Virus record (IMG/VR): IMGVR_UViG_3300020578_000034 | Span: 23,842-87,841 of that record | Length of the DNA stretch: 64,000 bases | Direction: 5' to 3' (one strand) | Source: a virus | Taxonomy: Duplodnaviria; Caudoviricetes | In this document: positions 1-62,806 of the stretch, piece after piece | How positions within the stretch are numbered: position 1 is the stretch's first letter | Layout: each line of letters opens with the position of its first letter | Notes under the pieces: model-generated | The model's database searches: none | What the model was told of the DNA's origin: nothing | The model's input: only the letters and a program-made list of their open reading frames with translations | Position numbers and translations under genes: made by a program

Positions 1-3000
1 GAAGGGGAGGCGGCCGGGGATACGCCAGAGGAAATTCTGGAGAGAATTCGCGACGCCCACGACGCCGCACGCGGCGACATCAGCGATATTGATGGCCCGG
101 AAGCCGGGATGAGCGACCCGGACTCGCGCCGATTCGTGGGGCGGACAGACGTCGAGTCCCGGGAACGGGAATTCTACGAATTGATGCTGGACGAACGAAG
201 GGCCGACGAAGCACTCACGACTGGCGACACGAGCGTTCTGCGTCCCCGAATACTCGACGATATTTTGGAATATCTCGGAGACGAGAACGAAGACGATCCG
301 GATTACGTCCCGTCTGCCGATGAGATCGCCTCTTTGGCGCAGGAATTGGCAGAGGAGGCAGTCGAAAAATTCATAAACGAGGATAATTACGTTGGCGGCT
401 CGTCCCGCAACCCTGTGTACAGGGGAAGGAACAACAGGGACCTGTGGCCCAGGCGCGACGAAATCTTCAGGAAATTCAGCGGAGGCGACGGGGAAGCCGG
501 AATGAGCAGAGGCGGAGGCGGCCCCGACGAATTGGCCGACAGATTCCGTAAGGCCCGAGAGGAGAGAGAGCAGCCCGGCAGCAGAGGTCTCGACGACGAT
601 ACGTCGGCAATGTTTAGACAGGCTGAGGATTCTTTGCGCGGAAGTTTCCGTCCGAAGACCAACGAAGTTGATAGGTACGAGTACAGCGACCGAGACAACA
701 TCAACGCCATGCGGTCGCAGGCCGAAATAATGAGGACGGACTACAACGACGAAGAAGCCGCCCAACTCTTTGAGCAGGCCGCGGACATCCTTGAAGATCG
801 ACTCGCGATGCCCAAGGATGACGACATCGTCGACGCAGAGATAGTAAGGACCTACGGGCAACTGGACGAACTCATTGAGAGCCCTTGGCGTCCTGCCGAA
901 AACATAACTCTCCACCTGGATCCGGTGGACGGAAGTATTCGCGAAGCCGATGCCTACGAAGCCGTGTATTTGGCCAACTCCGAAGAGGCCGAGCTGGACA
1001 TGTTCAACATCGACGACTACGACTCGGTCGGCTACGACGAAGCGGGCAATCTCGTCAGCCGGGCCCCCGACGGGGACGAAATAATCTTTACGGCGGAGCA
1101 GCTCGATTCGGCCGGTCATAGAAGGAAATACGGCAGAAGGACCTACGGGGAATTGGGAGAACTCGTGGAGAGCACCTTCCGCCCCTCGGAAAACGAACGC
1201 ATCTACCGGGATCCAACCAACGGGCGACTTTACCTGGCGGACTCTGGCGACCGGGACACCGGCGACGACGCGCCGCTCCCCGACTTCAACATCGACGACT
1301 ACGACTACGTCGGCTACGACGGAGAGGGCAACCTCGTCGTCCGCGGACCAGACGGGGACGACATAATCTTCACGGCGGAGCAACTCGGTGCCACCGGGAT
1401 GACCCGAGCGGAGATCGAGATGCTTGAGGCGGAGCGGATTGGACTTGCGAACTTGTCGGCACGACGCGAGAAGATGCGGGATGCCGGGATGTCTCCGGAT
1501 TATTCGGTCAGATCCCCGAGCTGGCGCGGTCAGGGTGAATTCTGGCTTGACACCTCGACGGGGAGAATCTTTTACAGGGACTCCACTGACTTCGAGGATG
1601 GGGACGGTTTTGACGGGGAATTCGTGGACATAGCGGGGGTGCAGTCGGAAGACGCCGATTGGATCCGCGAGAGTCTGCTCGCCAATTGGGACTCAATAGG
1701 TTTCAACACCAGGGGCGACTTCGTCTACAGGGGCGTCGACTTCGGGCAGGCGATGGACATCAACGACCCGGCACCGCCGCTTGACAATCGCGGGCAATTG
1801 ATACCGAACCAGGAAGAGGTCATATTCAGCGCGGAGCAAATCGCCTCCAGGCCCAGGATGAGGGACGACGACATCGTCGACGGGGAGATCGTCGACGACG
1901 ACGGGGAGGCCGGAATGGCCGGTCCGAACAGGAACAGACGCCGCGGGCGCGCCGTGGTAATCGATTCCGGAGAAAAGCTCGAGGAACTTTTCAGGAGAAG
2001 AAGGAGCGGGGAAGACATCTCGGACATGATGGAGGACATTGACCTGCCGAATCCGGGAGAACGTGCCATCACGGACCCACCCCCGGGTGCGGAAGCCGGA
2101 ATGGCCGGTCGCGCCAGGACCAGGGCGGAGAACGCGGACCTGGGGAGAAAGATCTGGTTGGCAAGGACCCACGACAAGCTGTCGTTGGACGAGGCCGGCC
2201 GTCGCTTCAGGACGTCCCGGCAGAGGGCCAGGCAGCTTGAGCTACTCCATCACAAGTACCTGCGCGACCTTGGTCAGCAGCACGCCAACAGGCTCGCACG
2301 GGCGATGGTCGACGACCCGATGACCGGTCTCACCGACTCCGAGGCGGATCTGCTCAGGCGACGTTTCGACGGCGAATTGCTCGAGGAGGCGGCTGAGCGA
2401 TTGAGGACCGACAGGTTCGCCATCAGGCGCATGGAGCAGCTCGCCCTCGCCAAGCTGAGGAACAGGATGATCGATGATGGTCCGTCGGGTGCGATGGCCC
2501 TCGGTCGTGGAGGCAGGGCGGTGGACGCCGCCCGCCCAAAAGCACCAGGGGCCGAAAGGCCCGGAAGCCGAAGAAGAAGAAACGCGGTTGATCCGAGTTT
2601 CATAGAGATCCTCAACTCGCTGAAGGAGTTGGGCGAGGACGGACTGAGCAACGCGCAGAGGGTGCGACTGGCGGCCCTGATGCGATTCCGTCGTGTGATC
2701 AGCAACAAGATAGACCAGTTGATGGTCGGCGGGTCGCGTCGTCGCCGCCTGTCCGCCGTCGCCCCGGAGGTTGACCAGCTCAACAAGTCCATGCGCGGCC
2801 CGTTCTCTTCGCTGGCCGAGGCCGCGAAGATAACCACGGGCAGCCCGAGGGATTTCGTCTCCTCCGCCATCAAGATCGCGAACGATGAGCAGGATCCGCT
2901 CGACATTGACGGACCGATAAACGTACAGGTCTTCGAGGCATTGCGGTCCACGAACGACGATTTCGCGGCTGTCGCCAGGACCCTCGGCATGGACGAGGAG

Positions 3001-6000
3001 ATCGTTCGCCTGCGAGCCGCGGCCCACACGTTGAGGTTGCTCGCCTCGGCGAGGCCGGCCAGGATGAAGGTTTTTAGGCGCCTGCAGAGCAGCGGTGACA
3101 CCCTGACGTCGATTGAGCGCTTCATCGTTGGGAAGTGGCTCAACGGAGCATCGGACCTTGACATTGCCGAGAGGATGGGGGACGGGTACGACGCGGCGCG
3201 CGTCGCCGCCACGAAGGTTGCGGCGCTAGCCAAGCTCCAGGTAGACGTGAACTCACCGGAGATGCGCAGCAGGGTGGTTGACGGGAGGATCTTCTACGAC
3301 GAGTTCGGTCTGTTCGTCGAGCTGACCGACGACGCCGGGGCCACCACCTACAACAGGATCGGTGACGGGCCGATGAGCATGGGGCTACCCGGCGACTTTT
3401 CGGACGCGTCCGGGGGTATGTCGCCTCCCAACCGCAGGGTCGTGTTCGCTGACTTCGGCGACGGGGGCAGGGAATACGTGGTCACTAGGACGGTCCGAAG
3501 GGACAGGGCGAACCCGAGCATGGAGTCAGTGATGATGATGCCGGTGAGGGGCGACGACCAGGCGACGGTGTCTACGCTCATCGGCAGGCAGCTGTTGGGC
3601 GACGATCGCGGGGCGAACCTCGAGTTCCCGGCGATTCTTTTGAAATCGGACGGAAGGATCACCGGCGTGGCCGACCTCTCGGGCAAAGCAGTTCGTTTCT
3701 ACGGTTCGCGCGTCATCAACGAATCCGCCCCCAGCGTCGCCGAGAGGGTCGGCGCGATAAGGGCCAACGACTCGGCGGCAAGGACGAAGATGGACCAGGA
3801 CGTCGAGGGCGCCGAGAGGAGACTGAGCGGTCTCATGAGGGCGCTGGACCACCTGATTAGCACGGGCGACTGGATCGGAGGCGACGCAAACGTGACCGGG
3901 AGGGTCCCCGAATACGCGACCATGATGAGGTACGGACTCGACTCCGACGACGACGGTACGCCGATCACTCCGCGCAACAGGACCAAGGAGCAGTTCGAGC
4001 TGGACGAGGCGGAGTTCTTCCTGTCCAGGTACCCGGACGCTCCCGCTGACATGGTGGAGCAGCACGTCCAGAAAGCCACGTCGGACCGGCTCGCCCAGGT
4101 GCGCAGGAAGGTCGATATCGCGAAGAAGGAGCTCGACAGGCTCAAACACGTCCGGGACTCCAAGGAGGTCAGGCGCTCCCAGAACGTCGTTGACCTCGAG
4201 ACGCTTGACGACGAGACGGCGAGGATGCTCGCCGACGAAACCGGATTCCTTGCGTCCATGTCCGGGCAGGATTACGACGCCGCCGGCGTGTCAAGGGGCG
4301 CTGACGGTTTCGCTTACGTTGTCCACAAGGGGCCTGACAGGCTCTCGGGTGGCGTGCTCGACCCTCGCATGTCGGCGGGCGTCGAGGGCCGCGCCGGGTC
4401 GGTGGCCGGGCAGGGCGACACGAGGGGGGCGAACAGGATCTACGTGGCGAGGTTCCTGCAGTCCGCGGAGGCGAAGTCCGACATGGTCAGGCACTCGTCC
4501 GACCTCGCCGCGAGGATCGCCCGAGGCGAGACGGTCGTCACCGCACACCCGTCGATACGTAAGGCGTTGAGGGCGCAATCCCAGCTCCTGTCGATGGCAT
4601 TCGGCGAAGGCGGATTGCTGAACATGGAGAACTTCGACGAGGCGCGCGTCGCCGCGATCGTCGCGGATGTCAACAGGTTCGTCGACGCCCAGAAACGCGA
4701 CCTCCAGCGCTACCAGAAGATAAGGGACTCGTTGACGAAGTTCGGCGGGAGGGACATGGACCAAATGCTGTCCGCCGAGTCGGACGCCACGCGCGCGGTC
4801 GGTTCCCTCGACTTCTACGGAAGGTACGCCGATTTCGACCTGCCCCGCGACGTCGTCAGCTTCTCGCCGGGGTTCACGGACGGGCTCACGAGAAGGTGGA
4901 CCCCCGTGGACGAAACGATGCTCGACCGGTGGGAGCTGACGGGCTCGCTGCGCGGCGGGGCGTTCCTGGCGGCGGGCAGGCTGGACGCGGAGATAGTCAG
5001 GGGCGGGCTGCTCGGACCGAGCGGCGAGTCGCAGATAATAGCCCCACTCAAACCCCTGATCGGAATTTCGACGCCGGTCAGGATCACGAACGACGTCGCG
5101 CCGAGCGACCCGAAGTTCCTTGTGCAGAGCCTCGGCCCGGCCCTGATGGCTAGGGCCATAAAGATGCACAAGCGCGACGGGTTCGTCGACATCGAGACCG
5201 TCCTGACGGACCCGGACTTGGCGCCGCAGGGTTACGTCGCGCGAACCGGGGACGCCGAGGCCGGTATGGCCGCGCTGGAACCGCGCAGGCCGATCCTCGA
5301 CGAGCGCGGGAGGCTCGACCCGATTTTGACGCGCGACCAAGCGTACCTGGACGACAGGGAGGAGAGGGATCTGCCAGATGGACCGATGCAGAGACTCCTC
5401 GTCCCGCAGACTCCGTCCACGTTCATCGAGGCCCCTCCTGGTGACCTCACGCCCGAGACGAGGAGGGCTCCGTGGGCGATCGGGTACACGGGTTCGGCGG
5501 CGGACATCGCCATTGGACTGGACGAGGATTACCCGGAACGACTGGTTCACGTCGTGGCACCCTCGGCGTTGCCGCCAGACAACGCAAAATTCCCCGTGAA
5601 CGAATCGGGCCCGCATCTGATGCTCGACCGGGAACCGCTGGACTTCCTGGTTCACGTGTTGAACGACATCAACCGCCTGACGGTGGAGGAGAGGGAAGCC
5701 TCGGAGAGATCGCTCTCGGACAGGGGCTACGAGGTCGAAAGATCGGAGTTCGACCCCCCGGACGATTTCACTCCGAGAGAACGTCACCCGACCTACCTTG
5801 TCGTCGACGTCAGGAACGAGCCGCAACTTCTGGGTCCCCCCGGAAGCGGGATCACGAGAATCATCAGGATCAGGGAAATCCTGAGGTTCAGACTGTCAAA
5901 CGAGGCCGACGAATCCCAGCCCGGCGGGGGACCGTTCTGGAGGCGAATCGACCCCGAGGCGGTCGCGAGAGGGGAACCTGGGAGAACCACGACCGATGGC

Positions 6001-9000
6001 CTTGGGTACATGGACTTCGTGATAGACGTCGACCCAACCTACGACGGAGACCTCATTGACGACACCAGGGAGGTGAGGATCAAGCCGGAGAGCATCGTCG
6101 GGAGAATAGTCTCCGCCGAGGAGCTGTCCGTCACCTCCCAAGTGACCAGGCAGCTCTACGAAGGGGACGGCGTTCGCCGCATGGGGTACCCGCGCCCCTA
6201 CGGTCGCTCCGGCGGCGACGCAGAGGCAGGGATGGCACTCGCTCCCCGCACGGCCGATCTGGTCGCAAGGACCGAGAAGTACTTCCCGTCGGACGACAGG
6301 AACGACTGGCTGATCCCAGAGTCCGTCATGCCGGACAGGGAGCAGGCGGAGCTCCTCGGCCTGCTCCGCGACGCGCTCGGCGGAAAGGCGATGACGCTCG
6401 GAGGAGAGCAGAGGTGGCGGATGCTCCTGCTCAAGGCTGAGTCCCTCCGTCGCCTGCGGAGCCTGAGGGGCGAGCTCCCGCACGAAAGGGACGAGATCGG
6501 CGTCTCGATGTACGACACGTTCGCGGCCGACACCGACAGGGGATACGGGCAGCTCATTCCGTTCGTGGAACCAGGGACGACGACGCACATTCGTTACGAC
6601 AGGAGCGGGAACCCGGTCGAGTACGTCCCGGTCAGGATCGGCAGGAGCATCGCCGACGCCTCAACGTTCGAGTACCACCCCGCGTCGCAGGTCAAGTACG
6701 CGCTCATTCTCTCCGGCAGGCAGCTTAGGACCTGGAACCACCCCGAGGGAACCGCTCCGGGGGTTTCGCAGCGAGTAGCGAGCTGGGAGGACGAGGGAGT
6801 CGAGCTTGACGTCCTAAGCGAGGAGATCCGCTTCCAGGCCTCGCGCACGAGGCAGATGGACGAACTTCTCGGCTTCACCGGCGACTCTCCGCAGAAAATA
6901 ATCCTCGCTCTCCGCCGAGCGGCCAGCGACAAGTCACCCAGACTCAGGGACAGGTTCGTGTACGACCCATACGGATACGTCGTTCTGTCCGACGCGCCGC
7001 GGAGGCAGGAGGACAGCGTCGTCGCCCTGCGCAGGTCCGAGAACTTTGCCGACCTGCAGAGACTGATCGCCGGCATAAAGAAGGACGAAAAGTCGGTGAA
7101 GGTTACGCAGGTCGTCGGCTACAAGCCAGGCTCCAAGACGAGACCGTCGCTGGTCGACCGGGTCATCCGCTCGCCCAGGGTGGTCAGCGGCGTGATGGAC
7201 GAGATCACGGGGGAGTTCGTGCTCGACGGTAACGGAACCCCGCACATCGTCGGGTACCTGCCCGACGGATCGCCGATAGCCGTCGAGATCTCCGACTTGG
7301 TATACGACCGCGTCTCGCCGAGGCGAGCCGACGACGAATTCTCGCCGTCGAGGAACCGCGCTCCAGGCGGGGATGCGGAAGCGGGGATGTCCTCCCCAAC
7401 GAGGTCCAACCTCTACAACTACATAAAAATGCGGCTGAGGGGCGAAGGCGGCGACCGGGACAGTGATTACATCGAGATATCCAAACTGCCCGGCACCGCG
7501 AGGGCGAGGGACGGCGGTGCGTTCGACACGAGCCCGGCGGGAATAATAAGGAGGATCGTCGCCGCGGTTCGCAAGAGGGACAGGGACGCCGGAGGAAAGG
7601 TGGGTCTCGTCTTCTCCTACCCGAGCTCGGTCAAGGACAAGCCGGGCGTGAAGGAGGACAGGAACAGGACCATCTTCAACCCACTCGTCGTGTACGGCGA
7701 GTACGACAAAACCATCGGCGAGACCCGGATCCTCGTGACGGACGACCGAGGCATAACGAGGCTCGTCCCGATGTCGCAGGTTGACCTGTCCAAGCTCGCA
7801 ACCGACGAGGAGAGACTCGGGGACCACTCCAGCAACAACGACGTGCAGGTCGGGGACCTCAACGCATACGTGGTCGGCGACGAATACGTGGACGGGAAGA
7901 AGCAGAGGAGAGTGTTCAGCACCGACAGGATGAGGCCGGTGATACGCGACGACGACGAGAGCACGAAACCGAGGCCGGCGACCAGTCGACCCACCGCTGA
8001 CACGACAAGCGAGGCGACGGACAGCCCGGACACGCGCGAGATCCCAATCGTTGCCAGCGACTCCGACGACCAAAATCTTGTGGGCCAGATCGAAACCAGA
8101 CCCGGCGAGTTCGACGCAGTGACGCTCGATCCCCGGCCCGAGTACGTCGCACCCGGTGCGGGGATCGACGGGGCGAAACCCACGGCGAGGGAGGTCGCGC
8201 GGGGCTTGGCGCGCAACGACCCCAAGGCCATAGAAGCGGGTCGGGCGGACGAAAAAAGGCTGTGGGAGCGAATAAGGCTGGGCACCGAAAAGTGGATCGA
8301 AACCTGGAAAAAGAGGGCGGTTATAGACGAAGAGACCGGCGAGGAGGTGATAGATCCGAAAACTGGCAAGACCGCCCTCAGAACGCCTTTCAGGAAGGCG
8401 TGGCGACCCTGGGGAAATCCGATCGGCCCCGACGGCAGGGAGCTTCCGACAGGCATCAAGGCCGAGATGGACAGAATCAGGAGCTGGCCTGAGTTCATGA
8501 ACTTCATAAGGCGCAAGAAGCTCGTCTTCGTCGACTGGGAGACGACCGGCATTCCGATAGGCGAGATTGACACGGGTAGGCCACTGCAAGTGGGCATCAT
8601 CGTCGTCGAAAACGGGGATTTCGCAAACCCCAAACGACTCGAGGTGTGGATAGATCCCGCCGGCACGCCGCTGTCGGATTGGACGAAGAAGAACGTGAAG
8701 AAGAACGGCATCCCCGTCGGTCAAGCGCTAGCGACCTCACCGGGCGAATTCGTGCCCGTCGACGAGGCGCGGCGCCTAATAGCGGAGGTCGTGGGGGCCG
8801 ACGGAATAATCATCTCCCACAACATGAGGAATTTCGACATGTCGCTGTGGAAGGAGGTGATGGGCGAATACCCCACCGCCGGCTGGATGGACACGCTCGC
8901 CATCGCCAACTGGGTGTTCCACATCGACTCCTACAGGTTCAAGCAGATCCAAGCACACCTGAATGGTTCTCCGTCGGCGAAGTCCGGTAAGAAAAACTAC

Positions 9001-13839: not shown

Positions 13840-13887
13840 CTACTCATGCAGTCATCAAACAAACAGTCTTCTACAATTGGAGGGATC

Positions 13888-15636: not shown

Positions 15637-15840
15637 ATGAACGGCAGACCAAGCGGCGGGTACACCCGCGGGAACCGTGTTATGGGTTATGATAAACCTA
15701 CACAAAATAACGCAGTCAAATTGAAATATCACTGCATTGCGACGGGCGAGAAACGCCAGTTTCCATGCGGCAGTTGCGTCAACCACAAGGGTTGCCTAGC
15801 GACGACGATGCAATACAAGGAGCGAAAACATGGAACCTGA
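15637..15840 (+). CDS. Small Cys4 (putative Zn-binding) protein; may start at ATG 15682
   Basis: HCIATGEKRQFPCGSCVNHKGC resembles the C-x2-[TS]G-x6-C-x2-C-x3-C repeats of the next gene, and the ORF overlaps that gene's start. Confidence 0.5.
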   Translation: MNGRPSGGYTRGNRVMGYDKPTQNNAVKLKYHCIATGEKRQFPCGSCVNHKGCLATTMQYKERKHGT

Positions 15841-25393: not shown

Positions 25394-25461
25394 CAACTAT
25401 ACGTCTATAATTGTTGAGTAATTGTCAAATCCCGTCGCCGGGAATAGAGGATAAAGGGCAG
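25394..25461 (+). promoter_or_regulatory. AT-rich intergenic segment with a TATAAT -10-like hexamer
   Basis: TATAAT at 25406-25411 in a rare AT-rich gap. No clear -35 element was seen. Confidence 0.4.
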
Positions 25462-56000: not shown

Positions 56001-59000
56001 AAATCGAGGATTTCGGGTCAATGGACGGCCCGTACCCTGCGCTAGCCCGCATCATCACGGGCAACGCCACGGGCACCGGGGCGTTCGGCAGGCAGCTGAT
56101 CACGGCCGACGGAAGAAGCCCGATCTTCTCATCAGTCGGTTTCGGCCGGGGCGACATGGTGCGAAACGGCAGGAACCAGATCTCGGCCCTCATGGGTGCG
56201 GTGCCCGGGATATCCCAGATGTCGGACAGGGCTCTCAGTCGGTTCCTCGGCGCGCCGTACGACGTCGTCGCCGAGTTCAGGAGGGATGGAGCCGCCGCAT
56301 CGCCGGAAGCCGCGGAGCGCCTGGCGCTCGCCTTCGGAAAGATCTCGTCCGAGGTGTGGCCGCCAGACGCGCCGCAATCGGATGCCGACCCAGGAAACTT
56401 CTACTGGCTCGGGTCGACCTGGGACAGGTCGGGCGAGATAATTGCGGCGATAGGCGAGGGGGCGGACCAGTACGCGGTCGCCGCCGACATGCCGAACGGG
56501 CAGTTCGTCGCAGAGAGGGTGACGCAACTGGTCGAAGACGGAACGGTGGGACGGTTCTACGACCAGGTCGGGCTGGAGGAGATAACGACCGAGGATGCTC
56601 AGTCATTCGTCGCTTCAATCGCACCGAGGAGCAGGAAGGGAGTCGTGGAGATACTGGCGTCCTCCGGATACAGGGAGCAGGACATAATCGACGCGACTGG
56701 ATTCAACCCCAACACGGTCAGGAACTCGTTGCACGAGCTGAGGAAACAGGGCCTGCTGCCCGAGGTGGTCGGCTCACCGAGGTGGATAGCGCGCAACGGC
56801 GACGCGGTTGTCGCCGACTTCTCGTCGGGTCTGTCAAAGCGCGCCCTCATGAAGAAGTACGGAATAGGCGCGAAGACCCTGGACTCGATAATCGGGTCGT
56901 CGCGCGACGGATCAAGGATGGACGACGCCTACGGCGACGCCGAGGCGGGGATGTCAAACCGCAGGTTGCCCGACAATACCCCGATGTCGGACGGACCGCA
57001 GCCCGACTGGAGGGACGAGAGGCAGACGAGGGCCGACGGAACGCTGGTGGACCGCGAGACGCAGAGCCCGCCCGCGAACGTCGCCAACCCCTTCGTCACG
57101 CCAGGTTCCCCCGCCTCGCTCGGTCTCAACGGCGAGATCAAGGACCCAGAGAGGATGCAGAACTGGGCGAGGGCGTTGTCAGCCTGGATCTCGTTCGCGC
57201 TCGAGGGGGGCTACTTCAAGAACCGCACGGAGGAAATGTCCCAGAGCGAGCTGATTATGGCCGGAATTTTCGGCGACAGCGGGAGCCCGGGCTTCGAGGA
57301 GGCCGAGTTCGAGATCGGCATGACCGACCCCGTTCGGGGCAAGAGGTTCAAGGCCTTTGAGATCGCAACTCGGCAGGACAACCCCGCCAACGAGCTGTTG
57401 TCCGTCAACGCAGTGCCCTCGATCATCCGCCCCCAGTTCGACGCGACCGGGGTTTACACGGGAATACTGCCGATGCTGAGGGGGATGATCCTCGCCACCT
57501 ACGACAAGTACTTCAAAAAGTTGTCCGACCGGGAAATGGGATCGTGGGAGGGGGTCAGCACCCAGGACCTCGTGGATGCCGGTCTGCTTGACGAGCCGGA
57601 AATGCCGAGGGACGCGAGCGACGAGCTCCGCCTCAAGTTGTGGCAGCTCAGGCAGATGATGCGAAACCCGAACATGGTCGACGCACCCCCGCTATTCGAG
57701 CCGGGCGACGAGGTGGTCATGCGCACGATCATCCCGTTGATGGCCAACGCCGACGAGATGAACACGATGCGCGCCCAGCACGGCGCGTCCCCCGAAGGAA
57801 TCCTCGGAGACCCAGCGGACAGGATTCAGTCGTCCACCATCAGCGGCGTGGAACTCTGGCGTGGGACCAGGGACGCAGAATTCGAGGAGATGGCCCTCAC
57901 GGGCGTCCCAATGTTCTCGAACCTGCTGCTCGGCTCCGTCGTGACGGGCGATCTCGGGGCGAGGAAGATCGTGGACAACCTCACGCCGCGGCAGATCATG
58001 CTCTCCAACTGGGTGTACGGGATGTACACGGCCCTGGAGCCACTGGTGAACGCGTTCGCCGAAATGATGCCGATGAAACGGTTCCGCTCCGCCTCCCCCA
58101 ACCTCCCGGACGAGCCCGGCGCAAGCATCATGCTCGGCGACCCGTTGTACCTCCCGACCAGGGAGGTCGACGACCAGGTGTTCGCCTTCGCGTTCGACTC
58201 GTTGTTCAAGGCTTTGCAGGGAGTCTCGGAGTCACCCGAAATGACGATCCTCGAGTCTCTCCCGAGCGGGGAGTTCGAGCAGCTCTACGGTGGCGACCCC
58301 GGCACAAACCCGTCCAAGGCGGAGGCGCTCAGGATGTCCACGAAGGTTCTGGCCCGCATCTTGGCCGACGTCCTCGCGACGGGCATATACAGGAAGGCCG
58401 TTCAATCGATTGCGAAGGACGACGACGGAAGGACGTCGCCCTTCTACAAGGAAGAGATGCAAACCGACTGGTTCAGGTTGGCGAGACCGAGGGTCGACTC
58501 GTTCGGCTACTGGTCGATGTACGGGCCGAACATCGTCTACGCCGGCACGGGTGGAGACATATACGAGCCGGGGTGGAACGACCAAACCAACCCGATTTCG
58601 GAACTTGGAAGGAACGGAGCGCAGCTGGCCGCCGACGCCGTCAAGGCGGACAAGGAGGCAATGCTCCAGCTCCAGAGGGTGATCGACGAGACCCCGGGCA
58701 AATACTGGTGGGAAACCGAGGCCGCGTACGGGGAACTCACCGACGACCAGATACTGAACATGCACCCGGAGGAGTTTGCCGATTACGTCGCATCCCTGTC
58801 GATGTACGGCGAGGGCGAGCTGGATGACGAGAAGGCGAGCCAGATGCTCACGAGACTCGTCGGACGACTCTCCGCAATGGGTTACCCGAAGGCCGAGCTC
58901 GACCGATTCGACGAGTGGATCGGGCCGATCATCTCTGGGATGCCGGAGGGGACGGTGACCAAGGAGTCCGTTCTCCGCCAACTGAAGAACATTTTCCCGT

Positions 59001-62000
59001 GGCTCGACATCGACAGGATGGACGACATCTACCCAGTGGTTGGCACGAGCTTCAACGAGGCCGTCAACGAGATGCGCAGGACGCTGGGAGGCTTGGGCCC
59101 CGAGACTTTGTCGGCCGTTTACCGCGGCAGGGGCCAGCTCCGTCTCGCCGCGGAATCGGCCAACCGCGCGCTGACGCCCGACGCCGACAGAGAGAAGGCA
59201 TTGCAGCAGATGAACCTGTACGTCATCCCGGTGATAAAGGGCTTGATGGCACTGCACAGGACAAACATCGAGATCGGGTTCCGGCAGGTCGCATCGTTTG
59301 CCGAGGGTCTGAAGCGTCTGACCGAGGCGACGCCCATGAGCGGGATACAACGGGAGCTCATGACCATCGCATCACTGCTTGACGATTTGCGCGAAAAGGG
59401 ATCGATAAACGACGTCACTCACTCCAAGCTGATGATGGAGATCGCCCGCGCCGGAGCCACGACCATGTTCGGAGACCTGGAGTTCGGAAACACCGTGATG
59501 GATGCCATCGCAAACGGGAGCGCCGATGACGTGATGACGTTCATGATGCTGATAGACGACGCCGTCTCGGACAGCGTGGAGGAGGACAAGCGACGCGAGT
59601 TCATCGACAAGTACAAGGGGTACATGACCGCCGCACAAAACACCTTCGGCGACGCATTCGGGCAGTACGTCAGGAGCGGTTTCTACGGAAGCGTGAAGAC
59701 AATCGGCGAGGCGGTGAGGGAGATGGAGCCATTCATCCTCGCCACCGAGCGCGCGCGCAAGAGGAGGACCCTGCTCCAGAGGTACAAGCGAGAGGTGATT
59801 GACCCCGTAAAGGACTCCCTGCTCACCGACGAGGAGAAGTTCAAGAACCTGAGGACCTTCAACGAGTGGCTCGACGCCAGCGGGTTCCCGGACCTCACGT
59901 ACGACAAGGGTGGCTCGGGTGGCGACGGAGAGGCGGCGATGTCGGCCCTCACGAGGACCGTGATGGCAAGATTCACCGATGACGCCGCGTCCGCGGTTAT
60001 CGAGGGCTACGAGGATTCGGCCAAGTCGGGTTCGTCAAGACTCAACCTCGGGCACATGCTGTCAGGGGCCTGGAGGGCGCTGATGACCGACACGAGGCCC
60101 GGCTCGTACGCGTCAAAACTAAGGAGGCTCAACATAAGACCGGACAGGATGGCCGCGGCGCTCGCGAGCATCACCACCCCGAAGGACGGCCCGTCGCCGA
60201 AACCCACGGATTATTCCACGGCTGCCAAGAACGCCATGATCGGGGCCATACGGGCCGCCACCAGGAGGGGCGACGAGTTCATCGATCTCGGCGACCTGCT
60301 GCAGGCGATACTCGACCCGTCACTCAGGGGACGTGAAGACGACGGCGTCGATGAAGCCCTGAAGGTCGCCGACATTTCTCCGAACGTGATAAGGATGGCC
60401 CTAGCGCAGTCAAGAATCTCTGGCGGCAGGGAGCCGCTCCCGGACGCCGAGGCCGGCATGTCCGCCAGTCGCATGGCTTTGAACTCCGCCGACCGACGCG
60501 ACGACCTGAAGAGGAACAAGATGCTCGCCAACGGCATGTGGTTCAACTCCGACCGACAGATCCCTGTCGCCACGGGGACCGCGACCGACGGGCAGCTCGT
60601 CGACGAGGTGGAAAGACTCATGAACATCTACGCCATCGGCGCCGCGAGGTCCGAACTGGAGCCCGTGGACTTCCGCGGCGGGGAATCACCCTTCTCCAAC
60701 GCGGCGATCAGGCAGACCAACTCGCGCCTCATCCACGGCGACAACGGCCAGGAGCCGACCGACCTCGTCGGGGCAATCAGGCACGCCATGGACAGGGCCG
60801 ACGCCCTGTTGACGGACGGAATGGAGCAACGCAGGTTCCACGAACTCAAGTCAAAGATGCGCCTCTACTTCGACAACGACGAGCACATGCCAGACGAATC
60901 GGGGGACGCCGAGGCCGGCATGACGAGAAATTTCAACGAGATGATCGAGCCGATAAATGACAACTTCGGGCGCTCGGAGAAGATGGGGCAGAAGCAGTAT
61001 TACGAGGGCATCTACGGCGACGCGGACCTGAGCGAGGCGGAGTTGCGAAAGGCGGCCGACGTCGCGTCGCTCGGGTCGCCCTTCGACATTTCGCGCAACC
61101 TCGACGGCAACGAGGACGACGTCAACTGGAGCACGAGCCAATGGTCGTTCAACAAGGATCAGACCTACGTCGAGGCGGCGGACTCCGTGATGATAAGGAT
61201 GCGAGACGGCGACTTGGCCACGGCAGAGATTGCGATGATCTCGCGCAAGAGCGGCCCTTTCAGGGACGCCATGGCCCTCGTAGGCGGACTGAGGGACGAG
61301 GGCGAGGATTTCATGACCACGGCGGCGAGGGAGACGGCGGAGGAGGTCGGAGTCTCCCTGGAGAGGGCGCTACAGGCGCAGTACATAGGAACGATAGAGT
61401 CGCCCGACTGGGATCCCCGGTTCGTCAACGGAGCGAAAGTCGGCGCCGGGATGTTCGTCCTGCCTTGGGACACGTCCCTCGTGGCCGCGTCCGACGCCGC
61501 TGGTGCGCGCTGGGTTCCCCTGTCGGAGATAGCAGCGGGCCAGCACAGGCTCGCCTTCGGGCACGCCGAATGGATACGAAGGGCCGTGGCCGCCATGCAG
61601 ATAGACCCGTCGTCGGACCCCTACGGGGACATTCGTCTCTCGATAGCAAAAAGGCTCGGGTTGCTCTCCAAGGCCGCGAGGGTGAGGAACCAGAAGATGA
61701 TCGCCATGGTCAACCTCGTCCGCAGGGCGACGGGCAAGAAGTTGTTCCCCGAGCAGGGCGACATGCCGCACCCGATGATGCCGTGGGGCAACAAGGTTGC
61801 GAGCTCCTCGTGGAGATTCGGGCCCGATGCCGAGGCGGGAATGTCCGCCTCACCCATCGACGACTCGCTGCCAAGGGAGCTCGGCCTTCTGTCCGTCCAG
61901 AGCACGATGCCCGCCAGTCTCCTCGAGAAAGGAGCGGACACCGCGGGCTTCTACAAGGTCGGGCACTCCAGGGGCGGCGGCGTCGACCCCGTCTCAGCCG

Positions 62001-62806
62001 ACGACTTGTTCGCGGCGTGGGGGGACAAGACGAGGGTGGAGAGTCTCTGGAGGCCGTACGTCGAACTCAGCCTCGAGCGGGCGAGGAAGGGCGACGTACC
62101 GAACGACCAGCAGAGACCGACGGTTTACATCCTCGGAGGCGCGTCAGGCGTGGGCAAGTCACTCGCCCGGAAGACAGGACTGTCGGGGATACCCAACTAC
62201 GACAGCGCCGTCGTTGCCGACCCCGACGACGCAAAGGCCATGATGCCGGAGGCGAGGCTGTGGTACGCGAGAAGGATGCCCAACGCGGCCCCCCTTGTTC
62301 ACCCAGAGTCGCGCCAGGTGGCGGCCGTGATGGCGAGAGCCGCGACCAAGGAGGGGCTGGACCTCGTGTACGACACCAGCGGGCAATTCAACGACGGTTT
62401 CAGGGACATCACGGACTGGAGGAAGATGGGGTACGACTTGGTCGCGCACTATTTCTTCGCCCCAGAGAGCACCCTGCAGCGGAGGGTCATTGAACGACAG
62501 GAACAGTTCGGGCGCGGCGTCCCACAGCACATCGTTTCCACGATCCAGTGGAACCTCAAGCAAATGATCCCGGACTTCATAGGACGACAGTTGTTCGACG
62601 AGCTGTACATATGGGACACGGAGAAGGACCCGGAAAGACCGCAACTGGTCGGCCAGGTGCTGCTCGGGCAGCAGGGCCAGCCCTCGACGTTGGAGGTGAA
62701 GCACCCGTATCTATTCAGGTATCTGTTCGAGGACAGGACCGCACCGGACGGGGGCAAGATCGAACCTCGCAAAACGAAGGTCATAACCATCCCGTTCGGC
62801 AAATGA
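47051..62806 (+). CDS. Giant polyvalent protein / putative polyprotein 5 (5251 aa) ending in Clp-N, Nudix and zeta-toxin-like kinase modules
   Basis: GC.G...WMPC motif, shared leader, and 10 strict EA[GA]M Mets (49892, 50402, 51089, 53075, 54872, 56951, 59939, 60458, 60920, 61841) plus IAAM 47606 and SAGM 49331. Confidence 0.92.
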   Translation: MDDSTEQGDCCPISGAEIEQKGIAFGPRQVRPDSFDAYVDKESARARARMLGCIGIRQYSSTAGGTVWMPCSNESDYRKVTGQDNLSRRQRRRMLKTFFTDGLETKALGSTIGAVSGQVNTNPFTAIDADLDGLVLEGLAHINMGRGVPDPTPGGAQIPSAPTSPLRRMDRSPFQVTNDDFAIAAMSNRTRPTQEVPTPPVRKRDRRMNRPSAKLRMEQYRDNVEAALKDDLFANSWQKAVADFIDADALGDDDSDQYLKQNLYSIVEDVASRVESAVDEQPEFSVPRGRTRRDAADATSARLTAKVLGTVSELMNNPPDAMTGRDDVVRRLTSSLLESGARRVADTGGKPGVWAFLIQAILGGAIGVQGGWELLARIFGIENSTGWIPHPTGRSLEILSPSLARQRSNEARSRALERVTRTMDALRDAGFAIADAGDIPSVADDIAEVLDGDRSTDLPGDLLPKDTAKSSSLDEVIRKMREATGIRDSVATRRRRDPRTYVEEDLITRNRMDLVGIPTGILDVFDSSSVPAPTPSDGSAARLIASGGVDGLNPMNAKLLYDAMSDQNFLRTFVAPTDSPYAAQLATLVEQGRLPKVAAAILEMSPESVEDFLAVNPRPLILSARSARKKLRPAGSWVTRIDHDPFEVAAHLMRAKDYHISAIANGSDSPVLLDAVDELVGNNASETSAIFSAMVANNKQRLADAYDGSLQLARSGNGLLMAARNLISNATENDSTWSASRNAITQASRAMVSAGDVSAGMTNTASRYGRNYPRHRRKSGDWSPIANKIRDSIKRYKSRYGAPAANSADLARFVDFSYPELLDEAAELIDLMKQKIEFGSLAMADYASDGWRNRDVAELALDEFDPTNLESIFDPGSRMGLLKAIGVNLAAAAKMAPSRSERDGVMDILDEVNSWSFTVLPLYTEPRSVTSRRRGIFPSVSADAEAGMTVNRGVPEDIRQTLMSRSAPLGSGTEGTPKIRMRRKLIERANELLAAKQSDDLVDRIGMDPKGPVIDIAETFLVTAEQFRWDQQTTASFYEDVAEMMNEMVQEVPNPKKRQLLADMFTDALEDIAENMDDGNTEFFASTGDIPSRTVGRLARRLGRTDQPRARSDSEAGMVGPDDEPRAIVEPMPEFPDDEPRAIVEPMPELPPTPPRRRMTDGEMVTIYGEVQRIFRSLDNPNISKNPNDAASWREKMRAAGINIPFSSDEGLDEVADQTLPDAPDDPRAVFSDPFAGVSQDAVRYLDDLMSIVLEEIGASVSSTTEDFVRDLRRRTGVRNSSEFHDLVRALSTSDGRATLADFSEQVMENNYLTTSAIKKRMTDRFPDFYDVMDYSGSGGGDAEAGMSGPIVDRIRERYVAQRKIRELGGVAKMNDEKDYKMRQTEARRRRLLSMTEPDGFFDFVTRGVTDQRSPLYLRPIAERMGGLYKYIKEMSDAQVDATWQALENFVNQARRDMFTGGLSSPYMTLYNAAKAKTTMDDPDFRPDGGRFSDDELLSKMEMNSWDEILPPPLDMTISESDIDAVPSFKAKAQAALEVLAIDRAQLMELLTGAETSEEARGKLSEEVETQERNVRQTIAKRAGKVEYVPTQLHMEQIAAADAITPLDSESLVAFVSTLDGAQLSYVSSASISTEQAKELVKAESRAISFASASRKLFAIRSLADLEPEEATFFRSKASQLIGDATISEPVKKLITAVVGDDDVAASQALSEIEPTDDNENSLVKVMWEMGRNSKGTFVTALLPPSIDEAERDATLRAKALGVLKSQPDGGRAMARRTIDHLPKDGRGYEPVRVVPEPGEGEAKIISLAEAIRAYDGTPESAAKIVEAMTDSQIERLRNNYIIPSIIQRMDRKAYEARLEQSSIAQTRARIDNLGRRLELLTFGTVDSGNTVEEIISRTDEALSKAFGDKVSDLSMLTREERSYYGDIIDYFISGGTEIFDDPSQYGMASRAMKEATAEVPENPTLPPLDPNPDAPPPPDDGSVTNVAPDAPKSDDDGFWDSMGIEAGMAPPTPGPPVPPDEPSKRRLEAMPEETARKLFGDDIAGFVREGTWTFGDPTFPRTAIPEEATLARKVISALFAVQQGEMPDDVAERMRSEGIYSAAQLIFRALSARTLEKIRNMPDPPYDFPAGPYDPRSDKDKDRQSFFLAAMQEYVSLHLALGGGALPIYDDAPGREPSRYSFELTREDFQMVIQDDDLMNYRLIYNPGQPNEAVRADEAVVAREEFVGDPSEHPLIQSIDRTLSHLRRQFPAFSDWLDQDNRYSRILGGMHYEKLDDSGQPRFGTGIIDLVRADPSSMDLEKVIREVVDQFVDQHSLLGVDGSRLVADARSLGPDPDDASPFPSMTSYPSPDYVETFSKPAADIARHKKIATSTAKASAAARQSWWTMFTTGTLMDQFEIAAVAVTDKGDNFHPDAILAGLRKYARDNNLAGQFDAYLGAAQAAASARFNSVALQTIQNTLNEMARNRGGIKGELLRLAKLQKTLEKHYKELSRHYQDRIRAKIQSIYSAWALLYGSWVDERKLVDGKVAKGQMTSQQAVDHLQKLYFDMQPTMYAAVNMIADLSRKAAASDRARTAVERQQEEIRERIEEIREAARLTGRDAEAGMALMRGINNAFDNLAEDPSGLSDDYKAGSSIGRSTFGVVGGDRVGAPRARRLLTTNEKKLASAISRMNDMFSQNNVDEIGQVPSIRAAMETLRGGRPDRVVPQIRTGDPGEIEQAKVTAAMMMRADAEAEATTRRILGARFKRFSDLAMNTLPGLTRRVVEDIVVDGVAEAMRANAVREADLDAALTMYSEAIRNVKYMSVFNPVQRTADILNLEPDDVSDAIATESMILKTSNLLRMAQSYASSLSGAYGRNSVLRMTNNRFPELRNFGSLFLESIFASPSDASSRKLNSAISLNKLMRFNSRAAAAAFGVSDDVAQVISASAAPRTRPTELSNPLPHDWNFMTFRDRQSWLGSEEAFNSLGRAGVNDELSKLQSQIEDFGSMDGPYPALARIITGNATGTGAFGRQLITADGRSPIFSSVGFGRGDMVRNGRNQISALMGAVPGISQMSDRALSRFLGAPYDVVAEFRRDGAAASPEAAERLALAFGKISSEVWPPDAPQSDADPGNFYWLGSTWDRSGEIIAAIGEGADQYAVAADMPNGQFVAERVTQLVEDGTVGRFYDQVGLEEITTEDAQSFVASIAPRSRKGVVEILASSGYREQDIIDATGFNPNTVRNSLHELRKQGLLPEVVGSPRWIARNGDAVVADFSSGLSKRALMKKYGIGAKTLDSIIGSSRDGSRMDDAYGDAEAGMSNRRLPDNTPMSDGPQPDWRDERQTRADGTLVDRETQSPPANVANPFVTPGSPASLGLNGEIKDPERMQNWARALSAWISFALEGGYFKNRTEEMSQSELIMAGIFGDSGSPGFEEAEFEIGMTDPVRGKRFKAFEIATRQDNPANELLSVNAVPSIIRPQFDATGVYTGILPMLRGMILATYDKYFKKLSDREMGSWEGVSTQDLVDAGLLDEPEMPRDASDELRLKLWQLRQMMRNPNMVDAPPLFEPGDEVVMRTIIPLMANADEMNTMRAQHGASPEGILGDPADRIQSSTISGVELWRGTRDAEFEEMALTGVPMFSNLLLGSVVTGDLGARKIVDNLTPRQIMLSNWVYGMYTALEPLVNAFAEMMPMKRFRSASPNLPDEPGASIMLGDPLYLPTREVDDQVFAFAFDSLFKALQGVSESPEMTILESLPSGEFEQLYGGDPGTNPSKAEALRMSTKVLARILADVLATGIYRKAVQSIAKDDDGRTSPFYKEEMQTDWFRLARPRVDSFGYWSMYGPNIVYAGTGGDIYEPGWNDQTNPISELGRNGAQLAADAVKADKEAMLQLQRVIDETPGKYWWETEAAYGELTDDQILNMHPEEFADYVASLSMYGEGELDDEKASQMLTRLVGRLSAMGYPKAELDRFDEWIGPIISGMPEGTVTKESVLRQLKNIFPWLDIDRMDDIYPVVGTSFNEAVNEMRRTLGGLGPETLSAVYRGRGQLRLAAESANRALTPDADREKALQQMNLYVIPVIKGLMALHRTNIEIGFRQVASFAEGLKRLTEATPMSGIQRELMTIASLLDDLREKGSINDVTHSKLMMEIARAGATTMFGDLEFGNTVMDAIANGSADDVMTFMMLIDDAVSDSVEEDKRREFIDKYKGYMTAAQNTFGDAFGQYVRSGFYGSVKTIGEAVREMEPFILATERARKRRTLLQRYKREVIDPVKDSLLTDEEKFKNLRTFNEWLDASGFPDLTYDKGGSGGDGEAAMSALTRTVMARFTDDAASAVIEGYEDSAKSGSSRLNLGHMLSGAWRALMTDTRPGSYASKLRRLNIRPDRMAAALASITTPKDGPSPKPTDYSTAAKNAMIGAIRAATRRGDEFIDLGDLLQAILDPSLRGREDDGVDEALKVADISPNVIRMALAQSRISGGREPLPDAEAGMSASRMALNSADRRDDLKRNKMLANGMWFNSDRQIPVATGTATDGQLVDEVERLMNIYAIGAARSELEPVDFRGGESPFSNAAIRQTNSRLIHGDNGQEPTDLVGAIRHAMDRADALLTDGMEQRRFHELKSKMRLYFDNDEHMPDESGDAEAGMTRNFNEMIEPINDNFGRSEKMGQKQYYEGIYGDADLSEAELRKAADVASLGSPFDISRNLDGNEDDVNWSTSQWSFNKDQTYVEAADSVMIRMRDGDLATAEIAMISRKSGPFRDAMALVGGLRDEGEDFMTTAARETAEEVGVSLERALQAQYIGTIESPDWDPRFVNGAKVGAGMFVLPWDTSLVAASDAAGARWVPLSEIAAGQHRLAFGHAEWIRRAVAAMQIDPSSDPYGDIRLSIAKRLGLLSKAARVRNQKMIAMVNLVRRATGKKLFPEQGDMPHPMMPWGNKVASSSWRFGPDAEAGMSASPIDDSLPRELGLLSVQSTMPASLLEKGADTAGFYKVGHSRGGGVDPVSADDLFAAWGDKTRVESLWRPYVELSLERARKGDVPNDQQRPTVYILGGASGVGKSLARKTGLSGIPNYDSAVVADPDDAKAMMPEARLWYARRMPNAAPLVHPESRQVAAVMARAATKEGLDLVYDTSGQFNDGFRDITDWRKMGYDLVAHYFFAPESTLQRRVIERQEQFGRGVPQHIVSTIQWNLKQMIPDFIGRQLFDELYIWDTEKDPERPQLVGQVLLGQQGQPSTLEVKHPYLFRYLFEDRTAPDGGKIEPRKTKVITIPFGK
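50411..50497 (+). repeat. 45-nt tandem duplication (PDDEPRAIVEPMPE x2)
   Basis: ccggacgacga.ccgcgcgccatcgtcgagccgatgccggaatt starts at 50411 and 50456, just after an EAGM motif. Confidence 0.9.
59939..60457 (+). other. Clp N-terminal (double Clp-N repeat) module
   Basis: RFTDDAASAVIEGYEDSAKSGSSRLNLGHMLSG and YSTAAKNAMIGAIRAATRRGDEFIDLGDLLQAIL. The module is bounded by EAAM and EAGM. Confidence 0.75.
60920..61840 (+). other. Nudix hydrolase module (ADP-ribose pyrophosphatase/NrtR-like)
   Basis: RKSGPFRDAMALVGGLRDEGEDFMTTAARETAEEVG (Nudix box from 61283), DPR, AASDAAGARW and LAFGH. Confidence 0.85.
61841..62806 (+). other. Zeta-toxin-like P-loop kinase module
   Basis: VYILGGASGVGKS (62135-62161), DPDDAK, VHPES, LVYDTS and R...GRGVP. 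Confidence 0.8.

Follow-up and report, generated by a model that had tools for sequence, protein, structure and literature searches.

Why should one short peptide recur, nearly unchanged, along several giant proteins of a tailed phage? The question is raised by a 64,000-nucleotide (nt) stretch of DNA, here called the window, that covers bases 23842 to 87841 of a single 87,841-bp virus contig (IMG/VR record IMGVR_UViG_3300020578_000034; GC fraction, ~0.62). An earlier note on this DNA had described a D-[AG]-E-A-[GA]-M-small motif in its large open reading frames (ORFs) and had proposed that these encode polyproteins that are loaded into the phage head and cut at the motif. Our analysis suggests that the motif marks junctions of head-cargo polyproteins that are cut by a protease of the phage, a full statement toward which we lean on balance; that the junctions are cut at all, a zincin-type enzyme being included among the candidates, we consider probable. 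Every point of the proposal that could be tested on the sequence favored it: selection on the peptide itself, the location of the sites in linkers, module insertions and deletions that end at the motif, stand-alone homologs of a module, the position of the genes between portal and capsid behind an S78 protease, a leader followed by a first site, and a cargo free of cysteine. From these we infer the cutting, the enzyme, the bond, and the packaging and injection of the products.

The junction peptide and its modules

All 30 strict E-A-[GA]-M sites that had been assigned to six ORFs were recovered at their coordinates: 10 in ORF1, which begins upstream of the window, 5 in the ORF at 17817-25190, 3 in that at 25411-34317, 1 each in those at 37978-40071 and 40061-45628, and 10 in that at 47051-62806 (ORFs other than ORF1 are named below by their first base). 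The 12 variants listed with them are genuine Met positions in related contexts. Over the nine large plus-strand ORFs (20,940 amino acids [aa], including the part of ORF1 upstream of the window), EA[GA]M occurs 31 times, against 0.84 expected from composition and a mean of 0.86 and maximum of 5 in 2,000 shuffles. In this genome the wider core A[GA]M[SAGTV] is found 41 times, versus 4.2 expected and a maximum of 12 in 500 shuffles. Neither AGM nor [ED]A[GA]M is found in 6,896 aa of the noncargo proteins of the contig, where A[GA]M[small] occurs three times (1.6 expected). Across the 31 sites, position -5 is D in 25, -4 is A or G, -3 is E, -2 is A, -1 is G (28 sites) or A (3 sites), and 0 is M; the residue after Met is S, A, T, G, or V in 30 of 31 (S 11, A 9, T 4, G 4, V 2, R 1), as the earlier note had said of its smaller set.

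The codons agree with the claim that conservation acts at the protein level. Codon choice in the motif tracks bulk usage (GAA at 8 of 31 sites versus 29% in bulk, with Ala and Gly codons near bulk), and only the first and second codon positions are conserved. The corresponding DNA pattern, GARGCNGSNATG, is present 32 times on the plus strand of the whole contig and once on the minus strand; a nucleotide match at 45904, outside the large ORFs, reads QEAAM inside a short frame and was treated as a chance occurrence. Judged by its sequence, the conserved object is a peptide and not a DNA or RNA signal. The flanks of the motif exceed the average in hydrophilicity and in G/S/P and R content, to a degree reached by none of 5,000 random sets, and this excess is absent at other Met residues.

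The junctions bound 53 segments of 58 to 1,305 aa (median, 308). That the motif bounds modules was upheld, whereas their description as single-domain units was overstated, since 13 of the 53 segments are at least 500 aa long; many units are protein-sized and probably contain several domains each. An AlphaFold2 model of the last 1,200 aa of ORF 47051 (66-row alignment; mean predicted local distance difference test score [pLDDT], 77.4) contains four confident bodies. Each of its four junction Met residues (residues 246, 419, 573, and 880) falls in a segment of pLDDT below 50; such segments account for 185 of the 1,200 residues. These junctions are DGEAAM/S at 59924..59944 (Met 59939), DAEAGM/S at 60443..60463 (Met 60458), DAEAGM/T at 60905..60925 (Met 60920), and DAEAGM/S at 61826..61846 (Met 61841); here and below, spans are 21 nt long and on the plus strand, and the slash separates Met from the next residue. 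The C-terminal modules of this protein are, in order, a ClpC-N-like module, an uncharacterized module, a Nudix module, and a Zeta module. The Nudix (60920-61840) and zeta (61841 to the end) assignments are supported by Pfam and by Foldseek searches with the modeled bodies (NrtR-type Nudix, 0.77; zeta/AvrRxo1-type kinases, ~0.57), and the module at 59939-60457, previously called Clp-N, has a ClpC N-domain-like fold (Foldseek match to the ClpC1 N-domain; TMt, ~0.8). Among the 150 best hits to this end of the protein, homology to Nudix-type and zeta-type proteins lies mostly within residues 573-880 and 880-1200; the hit P0016 (query 814-1165) runs across the junction at 880, and the full-length orthologs P0003 to P0008 span several segments.

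The other domain assignments of the earlier note fared unevenly. The helix-turn-helix (HTH) arrays at 20220-20978 and 20979-22418 were confirmed, and no GNAT domain could be confirmed at 30766-31902, which gave no Pfam hit at an E value of ≤0.1 and no PDB sequence hit below an E value of 0.9. In a Pfam search with ten single modules (E ≤0.1), only subthreshold rows were returned, and Clp-N, ART, and GNAT were all unsupported. The module at 22419-23186, which begins at DGEAGM/S (22404..22424; Met 22419), belongs to a family in which a YRG..SWT..ExE pattern is conserved (66 aligned sequences) and has a confident model (pLDDT, 90.5), but its fold matches are weak: Foldseek E values are at least 0.07, with almost all of these matches being ART-fold proteins, and VIA gave Tpt1 (Z 5.3; root mean square deviation [rmsd], 4.7; 113 aligned) and the Vis ART (Z 4.4; rmsd, 3.9; 112 aligned). 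Nothing significant was found for it among PDB sequences. Subthreshold sequence hits to BLF1 were also seen.

This ART-like module has relatives that stand alone. It fits phrog_4776, a 237-position profile, nearly end to end (PHROGs gave nothing for four of the five giant proteins), and 129 of 777 candidates at an E value of ≤1e-5 are stand-alone homologs of 194 to 371 aa. In 65 aligned homologs (median, 240 aa), 55 begin at the motif Met and the median end is residue 247 of 256, a start-to-start alignment to which end anchoring in the aligner may have contributed in part. Among the homologs is a hypothetical protein from Mycobacterium phage Aegeus. Unrelated effector-type domains, namely the Nudix, Zeta, and ClpC-N-like modules, the HTH arrays, and the ART-like module, share chains of 2,457 and 5,251 aa.

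Junctions, leaders, and cysteines across relatives

The protease domain at the start of ORF1 has more than 500 relatives in IMG/VR. An 84.5-kb contig, G001 (57% complete according to CheckV), is syntenic with that of the window. Its orthologous junctions keep A-[GA]-M-small, position -3 being variable (E, D, S, N, or Q), and A[GA]M[SAGTV] occurs 35 times against 3.8 expected. The presence or absence of modules between the two contigs ends exactly at junctions. Bases 20979-23186 of ORF 17817, which make up two modules, are absent from G001, with their ends at DGEAGM/G (20964..20984; Met 20979) and DGEAGM/S (23172..23192; Met 23187); ~730 aa of ORF1 are likewise absent, with their ends at junctions, the downstream one being DDGEAGM/A (1900..1920; Met 1915).

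More distant relatives retain the junctions with other peptides. Orthologs of the 5,251-aa protein were sought among 1.84 billion representatives, and the best 150 sequence hits were considered. P0003 to P0006 align with ORF 47051 junction for junction, with Met in register and each with a peptide of its own: [DE]AGM in P0003, xASM in P0004, PVGKM in P0005, and PSGSM in P0006, compared with EA[GA]M in the window and xA[GA]M in G001. The junction peptides of other giant proteins include ISGxM, VSGxM, ITGxM, SGRM, GMRS, GLRS, and GLAS; in locus L105 the peptide is ISGKM, and the junction at 61841 aligns with its ISGKM/S. By an unbiased count, which misses motifs extending past the Met or Leu (GMRS, GLRS, GLAS), 11 of 40 giant proteins show strong recurrence of an xG(x)M context. 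The contigs G004 and G005 have the same portal-protease-cargo-capsid block, with recurrent peptides spread over several ORFs: [GT]LRS occurs 14 times in G004 (0.67 expected), and G[ML]RS or GMR occurs 15 times in G005 (2.85 expected), 13 of these being G[ML]RS. The Leu of the G004 peptide is encoded by CTT (6), CTG (3), TTG (3), CTA (1), and TTA (1), and its Ser is encoded by both TCN and AGY.

Across these lineages the Met or Leu is invariant, preceded by any of several residues (K, N, R, Q, F, S, or G). The motif is recurrent in the window as proposed, but strict D-[AG]-E-A-G-M is confined to this genome and its closest kin. Since relatives keep only a core of a small residue or Gly plus Met or Leu, D-A-E-A-G-M is best seen as the local dialect of a wider rule, which, from the aligned peptides, is a small residue or Gly, an optional residue, Met (sometimes Leu), and then a small residue or Arg-Ser. 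A single recognition factor acting in trans would be expected to give one peptide per genome and different peptides in different genomes, the pattern seen here.

Some candidate relatives were discarded or gave no information. A scan of viral contigs for GGDAEAGM gave 10 loci, two of which, L087 and L091, belong to relatives; four share a single unrelated ORF of 325 aa, L083 and L084 have a nucleotide match only, with no in-frame GGDAEAGM, and L089 and L090 may be chance matches. P0039 was rejected as a stand-alone protein starting at a junction Met: its start is a truncated gene call, since the 94%-identical frame of L105 continues upstream through ISGKM. The last 1,951 aa of ORF 47051 gave no tblastn match among cultured phage records.

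Six proteins of the block share a leader, which reads NPFTA-x-DADxDxLVLEG...GRGVPDPTP or, in a shorter form, DxDGDG-[IV]-x-DGTP. It lies at 17919..18032 in ORF 17817 (NPFTARDADMDMLVLED..GRGVPDPTP; aa 35-72), 34479..34592 in ORF 34314 (aa 56-93), 40793..40906 in ORF 40061 (aa 245-282), and 47432..47545 in ORF 47051 (aa 128-165), with a leader-like DRDGDGYIYDGTP at 14239..14310 in ORF 13846, all on the plus strand; in these five ORFs it stands at or near the front, and in ORF1 it follows the protease and scaffold-like part, upstream of the window. In three of the six ORFs the first site after the leader is a local-dialect junction no more than ~20 to 60 aa further on: FAVAAM/S at aa 88 of ORF 17817 (18063..18083; Met 18078), FAIAAM/S at aa 186 of ORF 47051 (47591..47611; Met 47606), and the variant GPMAAM/T, in full DGPMAAM/T, at aa 126 of ORF 34314 (34674..34694; Met 34689). 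The next site lies ~110 to 150 aa past the leader in ORF1 and ORF 40061, and there is none in ORF 13846. The same succession of leader and junction is seen in three ORFs of G001, three of G004 (RRGLRS, RRGLRS, TSLRS), and two of G005 (TGMRS, RSMRS). From its sequence the leader may be a capsid-targeting element or a Ca-binding element. It has a DxDxDG-like loop, and its version in relatives reads FDPNAxDGDxDGxVQEGTPFERP.

Past the leaders or first sites the chains have no cysteine over ~18,500 aa, against 0.59% Cys in the noncargo proteins. All Cys residues of the chains are N-terminal (10 in aa 1-481 of ORF1, 4 in aa 1-71 of ORF 47051, and 4 in aa 1-267 of ORF 25411), with a single one at aa 178 in ORF 40061. 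The confinement of Cys to these parts suggests that the two parts of each chain have different fates.

A candidate protease and competing explanations

The plus strand runs from a portal-MuF gene to ORF1, with the S78 protease as its first module, then to the cargo ORFs, and finally to an HK97-type major capsid gene. An ordinary HK97-like phage has only a protease and a scaffold in the portal-capsid interval; here an interval of ~65 kb, ~74% of the 87.8-kb contig, is filled by giant proteins. The protease belongs to Peptidase_S78 (PF04586; aa 25-179 of ORF1; E, 3.9e-11; 43.8 bits against a cutoff of 21) and is followed by DUF6321 (aa 235-306), on which no literature was found. The family is also present in G004, G005, and G006, is universal in the group, and is the only protease recognized by profile. 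RVVWGH[DN]WN and EQEWSIGY, which may hold the catalytic His and Ser of S78, are invariant in 12 aligned protease domains; a phmmer search of PDB sequences with the domain gave nothing below an E value of 0.4. The window genome and G001, which have the AGM core in common, share 99% identity in the protease domain and 44 to 87% in the aligned cargo.

We propose that the shared leader would bring the chains into the assembling prohead, where a phage protease would cut each exposed junction; the likeliest enzyme is S78 itself, cutting after Met under the rule [A/G]-x-M/small. With the leader parts stripped, ~50 separate Cys-free proteins would be freed, among them a Nudix protein, a zeta-type kinase, a ClpC-N-like protein, HTH arrays, an ART-like enzyme, and many uncharacterized proteins, and these would remain in the head until they pass into the host along with the DNA. 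Modules would be gained and lost in frame at junctions and, because every junction must fit one enzyme, the peptide would be uniform within a genome and drift between lineages.

Most dialects fit [A/G]-x-M/small with Met at P1, and such a P3-x-P1 form matches the cleavage rules of T4 gp21, phiKZ gp175, and herpesvirus assemblin. Relatives with a short protease ORF (~530 to 1,100 aa) and no giant protease-led polyprotein carry A-M-[S/G] (ADAMSS, NxAMGR) before a conserved postprotease domain; a Met lies no more than 12 residues upstream of the postprotease anchor in 19 of the 23 sequences in which the anchor was found (48 examined). In the capsid protein, GRNGANM or, in L105, GQNGANM (residues ~140-147, at the end of the coiled-coil delta-like region) is invariant in five proteins from four motif lineages (window, G001, G004, G005, and L105), and a second conserved small-small-[ML]-[AP] site, YTSM/ATG, follows 25 aa further on. 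From their sequence and position, both are candidate maturation sites. The capsid GANM is related to the cargo motif and not the same.

Several points weigh against this proposal. The strict motif EDEAGM/V of ORF 37978 (39232..39252; Met 39247) may not be in a linker, given its well-conserved flanks in G001, and the junction status of DAEAGM/A (54857..54877; Met 54872), where G001 keeps the M and not the AG, is doubtful; to judge from sequence comparison, both may lie in folded regions. The 13 segments of 500 to 1,305 aa hold no junction, and the structural model covers four junctions of one protein. Protease domains that are 73 to 81% identical go with rather different junction peptides, which a tightly coevolving specificity does not predict. 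Uniformity within a genome may come partly from homogenization at the DNA level, as identical 22-nt stretches flank one module. The protease-to-scaffold junction of the window itself lacks an A-M-S peptide, the capsid GANM is no close match to the cargo motif, and in G001 the residue after it is His, which is not small. Finally, all four lineages examined conserve an HExxH domain, which makes a second candidate enzyme available.

It is this domain that suggests another enzyme: the junctions could be cut by a cargo-encoded zincin-like HExxH metallopeptidase, or something else, with the Met or Leu as P1' (G/M or G/L), so that modules begin with Met. G001 retains the HExxH motifs at 24675, 27493, and 35661, and HE[IVM]GH-type motifs occur in cargo ORFs of G004 and G005; the HEIGH protein, ORF 34314, keeps HExxH in G001, G004, and G005. 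Many zincins prefer hydrophobic P1' residues, and an invariant Met or Leu behind a variable residue fits an enzyme driven by P1'. A cut before Met would also give the start seen in the 55 of 65 stand-alone homologs whose first Met aligns with that of the motif, insofar as aligner end anchoring does not account for this. Metallopeptidase autoprocessing has been proposed for polyvalent proteins in the main text of Iyer et al. 2017 (PMC5512222). No family was found by Pfam for the three HExxH regions at an E value of ≤0.01, however, a protein atlas was uninformative for the HEIGH protein (best score, 0.78), and the short-protease-ORF relatives still carry A-M-[S/G] after their S78 domain. We regard this version of cutting as unlikely.

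A second possibility is that the joint is flexible and uncut, its coding DNA providing short homology for in-frame module exchange, and that the polyvalent proteins act at full length. The exact coincidence of the G001 module differences with junctions would suit such exchange, as would the identical 22-nt stretches that flank an HTH module (20961-20982 and its copy at the junction DGEAGM/A, 20205..20225, Met 20220), the repeat families formed by junction DNA, and the presence on the same contig of a Rad52-family annealing protein and a PD-(D/E)XK nuclease; some polyvalent proteins are delivered unprocessed, according to the main text of Iyer et al. (PMC5512222). Synonymous positions of the motif, however, are as free as in bulk coding sequence, and the G004 peptide is written with both TCN and AGY Ser codons and with five Leu codons, so DNA identity is not the conserved thing. 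Recombination homology would also leave the succession of leader and junction, the invariance of Met or Leu, and the lack of Cys unexplained. As a replacement for cutting, the uncut joint appears improbable to us; exchange and cutting are not exclusive, and exchange can be a by-product of cut sites.

That the motif is instead an uncleaved, multivalent docking peptide for the capsid interior, the portal, or a chaperone seems very unlikely. It is short, exposed, repeated, located in disordered linkers, and lineage specific like many coevolving binding motifs, but the separate shared leader already resembles a targeting element, a docking peptide has no need of strict placement at module boundaries and indel ends, and no partner is evident. 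Internal translation starts giving nested products, as in lambda C/Nu3, were examined because GAG-GCN-GGN-ATG resembles a ribosome-binding site plus start codon, and were rejected as highly improbable: pairing with a generic anti-Shine-Dalgarno sequence is somewhat stronger for the motif ATGs of the window than for its other internal ATGs (mean, -5.05 versus -3.26 kcal/mol) and the residue after Met permits Met removal, but the orthologous ATGs of G001 pair no better (-2.96 versus -3.47), GAA is used at the bulk rate with conservation at codon positions one and two only, and the G004 equivalent is Leu, encoded by CTT, CTA, or TTA at 8 of 14 sites. The motif was likewise rejected as upstream context of true gene starts, none of 10 likely starts inspected carrying it.

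If the polyproteins are cut in the head, their close counterparts include phages that process internal head proteins with a protease built into the prohead. In T4, N-terminal propeptides are removed from IPI to IPIII and Alt by gp21, and in phiKZ they are removed from inner-body proteins by gp175, under a P3 plus P1 rule with Glu at P1 and a small P1' preferred; the trimmed proteins remain in the head and pass into the host. Cutting of cargo at short motifs by prohead proteases is experimentally established in T4-like and phiKZ-like phages, and in the head proteins of SPN3US (gp245) a targeting propeptide precedes the cut site, according to PMC10052503. The cargo described here is similar, on the evidence of its sequence, in having a phage prohead protease, a leader followed by a short motif, and, were the cut to follow Met, a small P1' residue. 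It differs in that T4, phiKZ, and SPN3US have separate cargo genes with one or a few N-terminal sites and S77-type proteases, whereas here the protease is of the S78 (HK97) type and is itself the first module, and Met or Leu sites run along chains of up to 5,466 aa. RNA virus and retrovirus polyproteins (picornavirus 3C, Gag-Pol) have an embedded protease and a junction consensus whose sites coevolve with the enzyme. If cut, the chains of the window would share with them one frame, many mature proteins, an embedded protease, and a short junction consensus; they share no homology and belong to a double-stranded DNA (dsDNA) tailed phage, would yield accessory cargo and not a replication and capsid core, and would presumably be processed inside the prohead.

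The giant proteins also resemble the polyvalent proteins of phages and conjugative elements, which the main text of PMC5512222 describes as giant, with 2 to 15 domains per polypeptide, unrelated conflict-type domains, occurrence in portal-terminase phages, and proposed capsid packaging with possible peptidase processing; the concept of capsid-packaged, possibly autoprocessed polyvalent proteins is already known from that text. Shared features, insofar as that text defines them, are several unrelated effector-type domains per chain and TerL, portal-MuF, S78, and capsid genes around the block; unlike polyvalent proteins so described, the window has ~50 units in seven proteins, a uniform junction peptide, an S78 fusion, a shared leader, and Cys-free cargo. 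A zincin-like (MPTase) domain is a frequent and not obligatory feature of polyvalent proteins, and here the three conserved HExxH motifs lack a Pfam match at an E value of ≤0.01. The word "linker" does not occur in the main text of PMC5512222, and no recurring junction peptide was seen there.

Cultured relatives at the level of the capsid protein (45% identity) are Bendigovirus-like phages of Gordonia or Brevibacterium. A similar gene arrangement is found in Gordonia phage DalanDe (Bendigovirus), whose 1,633-aa "capsid maturation protease" (14943-19844) is a long polypeptide with an S78-type domain adjoining the capsid gene; its capsid protein is 45.7% identical to that of G001 and has GRATM at the position of GRNGANM. 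Unlike in ORF1, the S78 domain lies near the C-terminal third, behind a long uncharacterized N-terminal extension, and no recurrent junction peptide stood out in this protein. We found no published description of recurrent Met-containing junctions in giant phage proteins, a result on which the domain-architecture supplements of PMC5512222 could bear. Nor did we find in print a uniform junction peptide dividing ~20,000 aa into ~50 units, lineage versions of it at orthologous junctions, a chain that opens with an S78 protease, or Cys-free cargo.

If the junctions are cut, one phage would deliver some fifty proteins from seven genes, far more head cargo than T4- or phiKZ-type phages, and the set would include a zeta-type kinase, a Nudix hydrolase, an ART-like enzyme, a ClpC-N-like decoy, and DNA-binding arrays. 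To our knowledge, the substrate specificity of S78 (HK97-type) proteases is poorly defined; the junctions, if read correctly, would give a first readable specificity code for S78 and a dsDNA phage counterpart of RNA virus polyproteins. Lineage-specific junctions at orthologous positions amount to a natural experiment on the coevolution of a capsid protease and dozens of its sites, and the absence of Cys from the cargo could point to a constraint imposed by transit through the tail. Junction peptides also offer a simple rule for splitting giant phage ORFs, which would help the annotation of metagenomic phages, and could serve for loading foreign proteins into capsids. At its widest, our proposal is that an uncultured phage clade with genomes of an estimated ~150 kb carries a ~65-kb programmable cargo system in which whole genes are captured in frame, guided by a leader, and released at ~50 junctions by an HK97-type protease whose recognition peptide drifts (AGM, ASM, SGSM, VGKM, ISGxM, GMRS, LRS); we rate this as plausible, with a chance somewhat below even. 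The clade is perhaps related at the capsid level to phages of actinobacteria, with cargo perhaps making up ~40% of a ~150-kb genome.

Genes of the block and their remaining sites

Early-type genes on the minus strand, upstream of the window, encode a PAPS-reductase-like protein, a PD-(D/E)XK nuclease, a Rad52-family protein, and the large terminase (TerL). The portal protein (739 aa; bases 18971-21190 of the contig) has a Mu F-like (SPP1 gp7-type) domain fused at its C terminus. ORF1 (5,466 aa) starts 2,564 nt upstream of the window, and its C-terminal 4,612 aa occupy 1..13839 on the plus strand, as do all of the following genes, which after ORF1 encode 592, 658, 2,457, 2,968, 913, 697, 1,855, and 5,251 aa. 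ORF1 has 11 strict junctions, 10 of them in the window. In addition to that at Met 1915, these are DGPEAGM/S at 94..114 (Met 109), GDGEAGM/S at 487..507 (Met 502), GAEAGM/A at 2086..2106 (Met 2101), DAEAGM/A at 5251..5271 (Met 5266) and 6217..6237 (Met 6232), DAEAGM/S at 7372..7392 (Met 7387), DAEAGM/G at 11056..11076 (Met 11071), DAEAAM/G at 11665..11685 (Met 11680), and DGEAGM/A at 12424..12444 (Met 12439). Variants in the same frame are RDAGM/S at 1474..1494 (Met 1489), PSGAM/A at 2479..2499 (Met 2494), SGGM/S at 3403..3423 (Met 3418), GPFAGM/A at 10132..10152 (Met 10147), and DANAGM/S at 12730..12750 (Met 12745); a further core match that had not been listed earlier is SNAAM/S at 10306..10326 (Met 10321).

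The 592-aa protein that follows (13846..15624) carries the leader along with internal tandem repeats and lacks both Cys and a junction motif. The next ORF (15830..17806) encodes a 658-aa acidic, Cys-rich protein (17 Cys, in CxxC pairs) with neither motif nor leader and, though inside the block, is probably not cargo of the same kind. This protein is very acidic, has a poly-Lys run, and, at 87% identity in G001, is the best-conserved ORF of the block.

The 2,457-aa cargo polyprotein (17817..25190) contains, besides its leader and first site, the HTH arrays, the ART-like module, HEFFH, and five strict junctions, the first being GPEAGM/T at 19002..19022 (Met 19017). The 2,968-aa cargo polyprotein (25411..34317), whose start codon is uncertain, contains HELNH and the strict junctions DAEAGM/G at 30751..30771 (Met 30766), DAEAGM/A at 32062..32082 (Met 32077), and DAEAGM/S at 32608..32628 (Met 32623), with the variants DPAAGM/S at 26458..26478 (Met 26473), PDVGM/A at 30376..30396 (Met 30391), and GPNAAM/R at 31888..31908 (Met 31903). 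The 913-aa protein (34314..37055) has HEIGH at aa 450, and the 697-aa protein (37978..40071) has one strict motif, IEDEAGMV. In the 1,855-aa protein (40061..45628), the leader is followed by the strict motif DAEAAM/R at 41231..41251 (Met 41246) and by a further core match absent from the earlier list, PNAGM/V at 44585..44605 (Met 44600).

The 5,251-aa cargo polyprotein (47051..62806) has ten strict sites. Those not given above are DAEAGM/T at 49877..49897 (Met 49892), DSEAGM/V at 50387..50407 (Met 50402), DAEAGM/S at 51074..51094 (Met 51089), GIEAGM/A at 53060..53080 (Met 53075), and DAEAGM/S at 56936..56956 (Met 56951); a variant, DVSAGM/T, lies at 49316..49336 (Met 49331). The HK97-type major capsid gene begins at 63102 and is cut by the end of the contig (63102..63998; N-terminal 299 aa).

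Between the 1,855-aa and 5,251-aa proteins lies a small, very basic, K/R-rich ORF (46029-46976; 315 aa), which is adjoined by a short ORF at 45626-46045. Tandem repeats occur within coding sequence at 14649-15533 in ORF 13846 (units of 285 and 132 nt) and at 28633-28947 in ORF 25411 (three 105-nt units).

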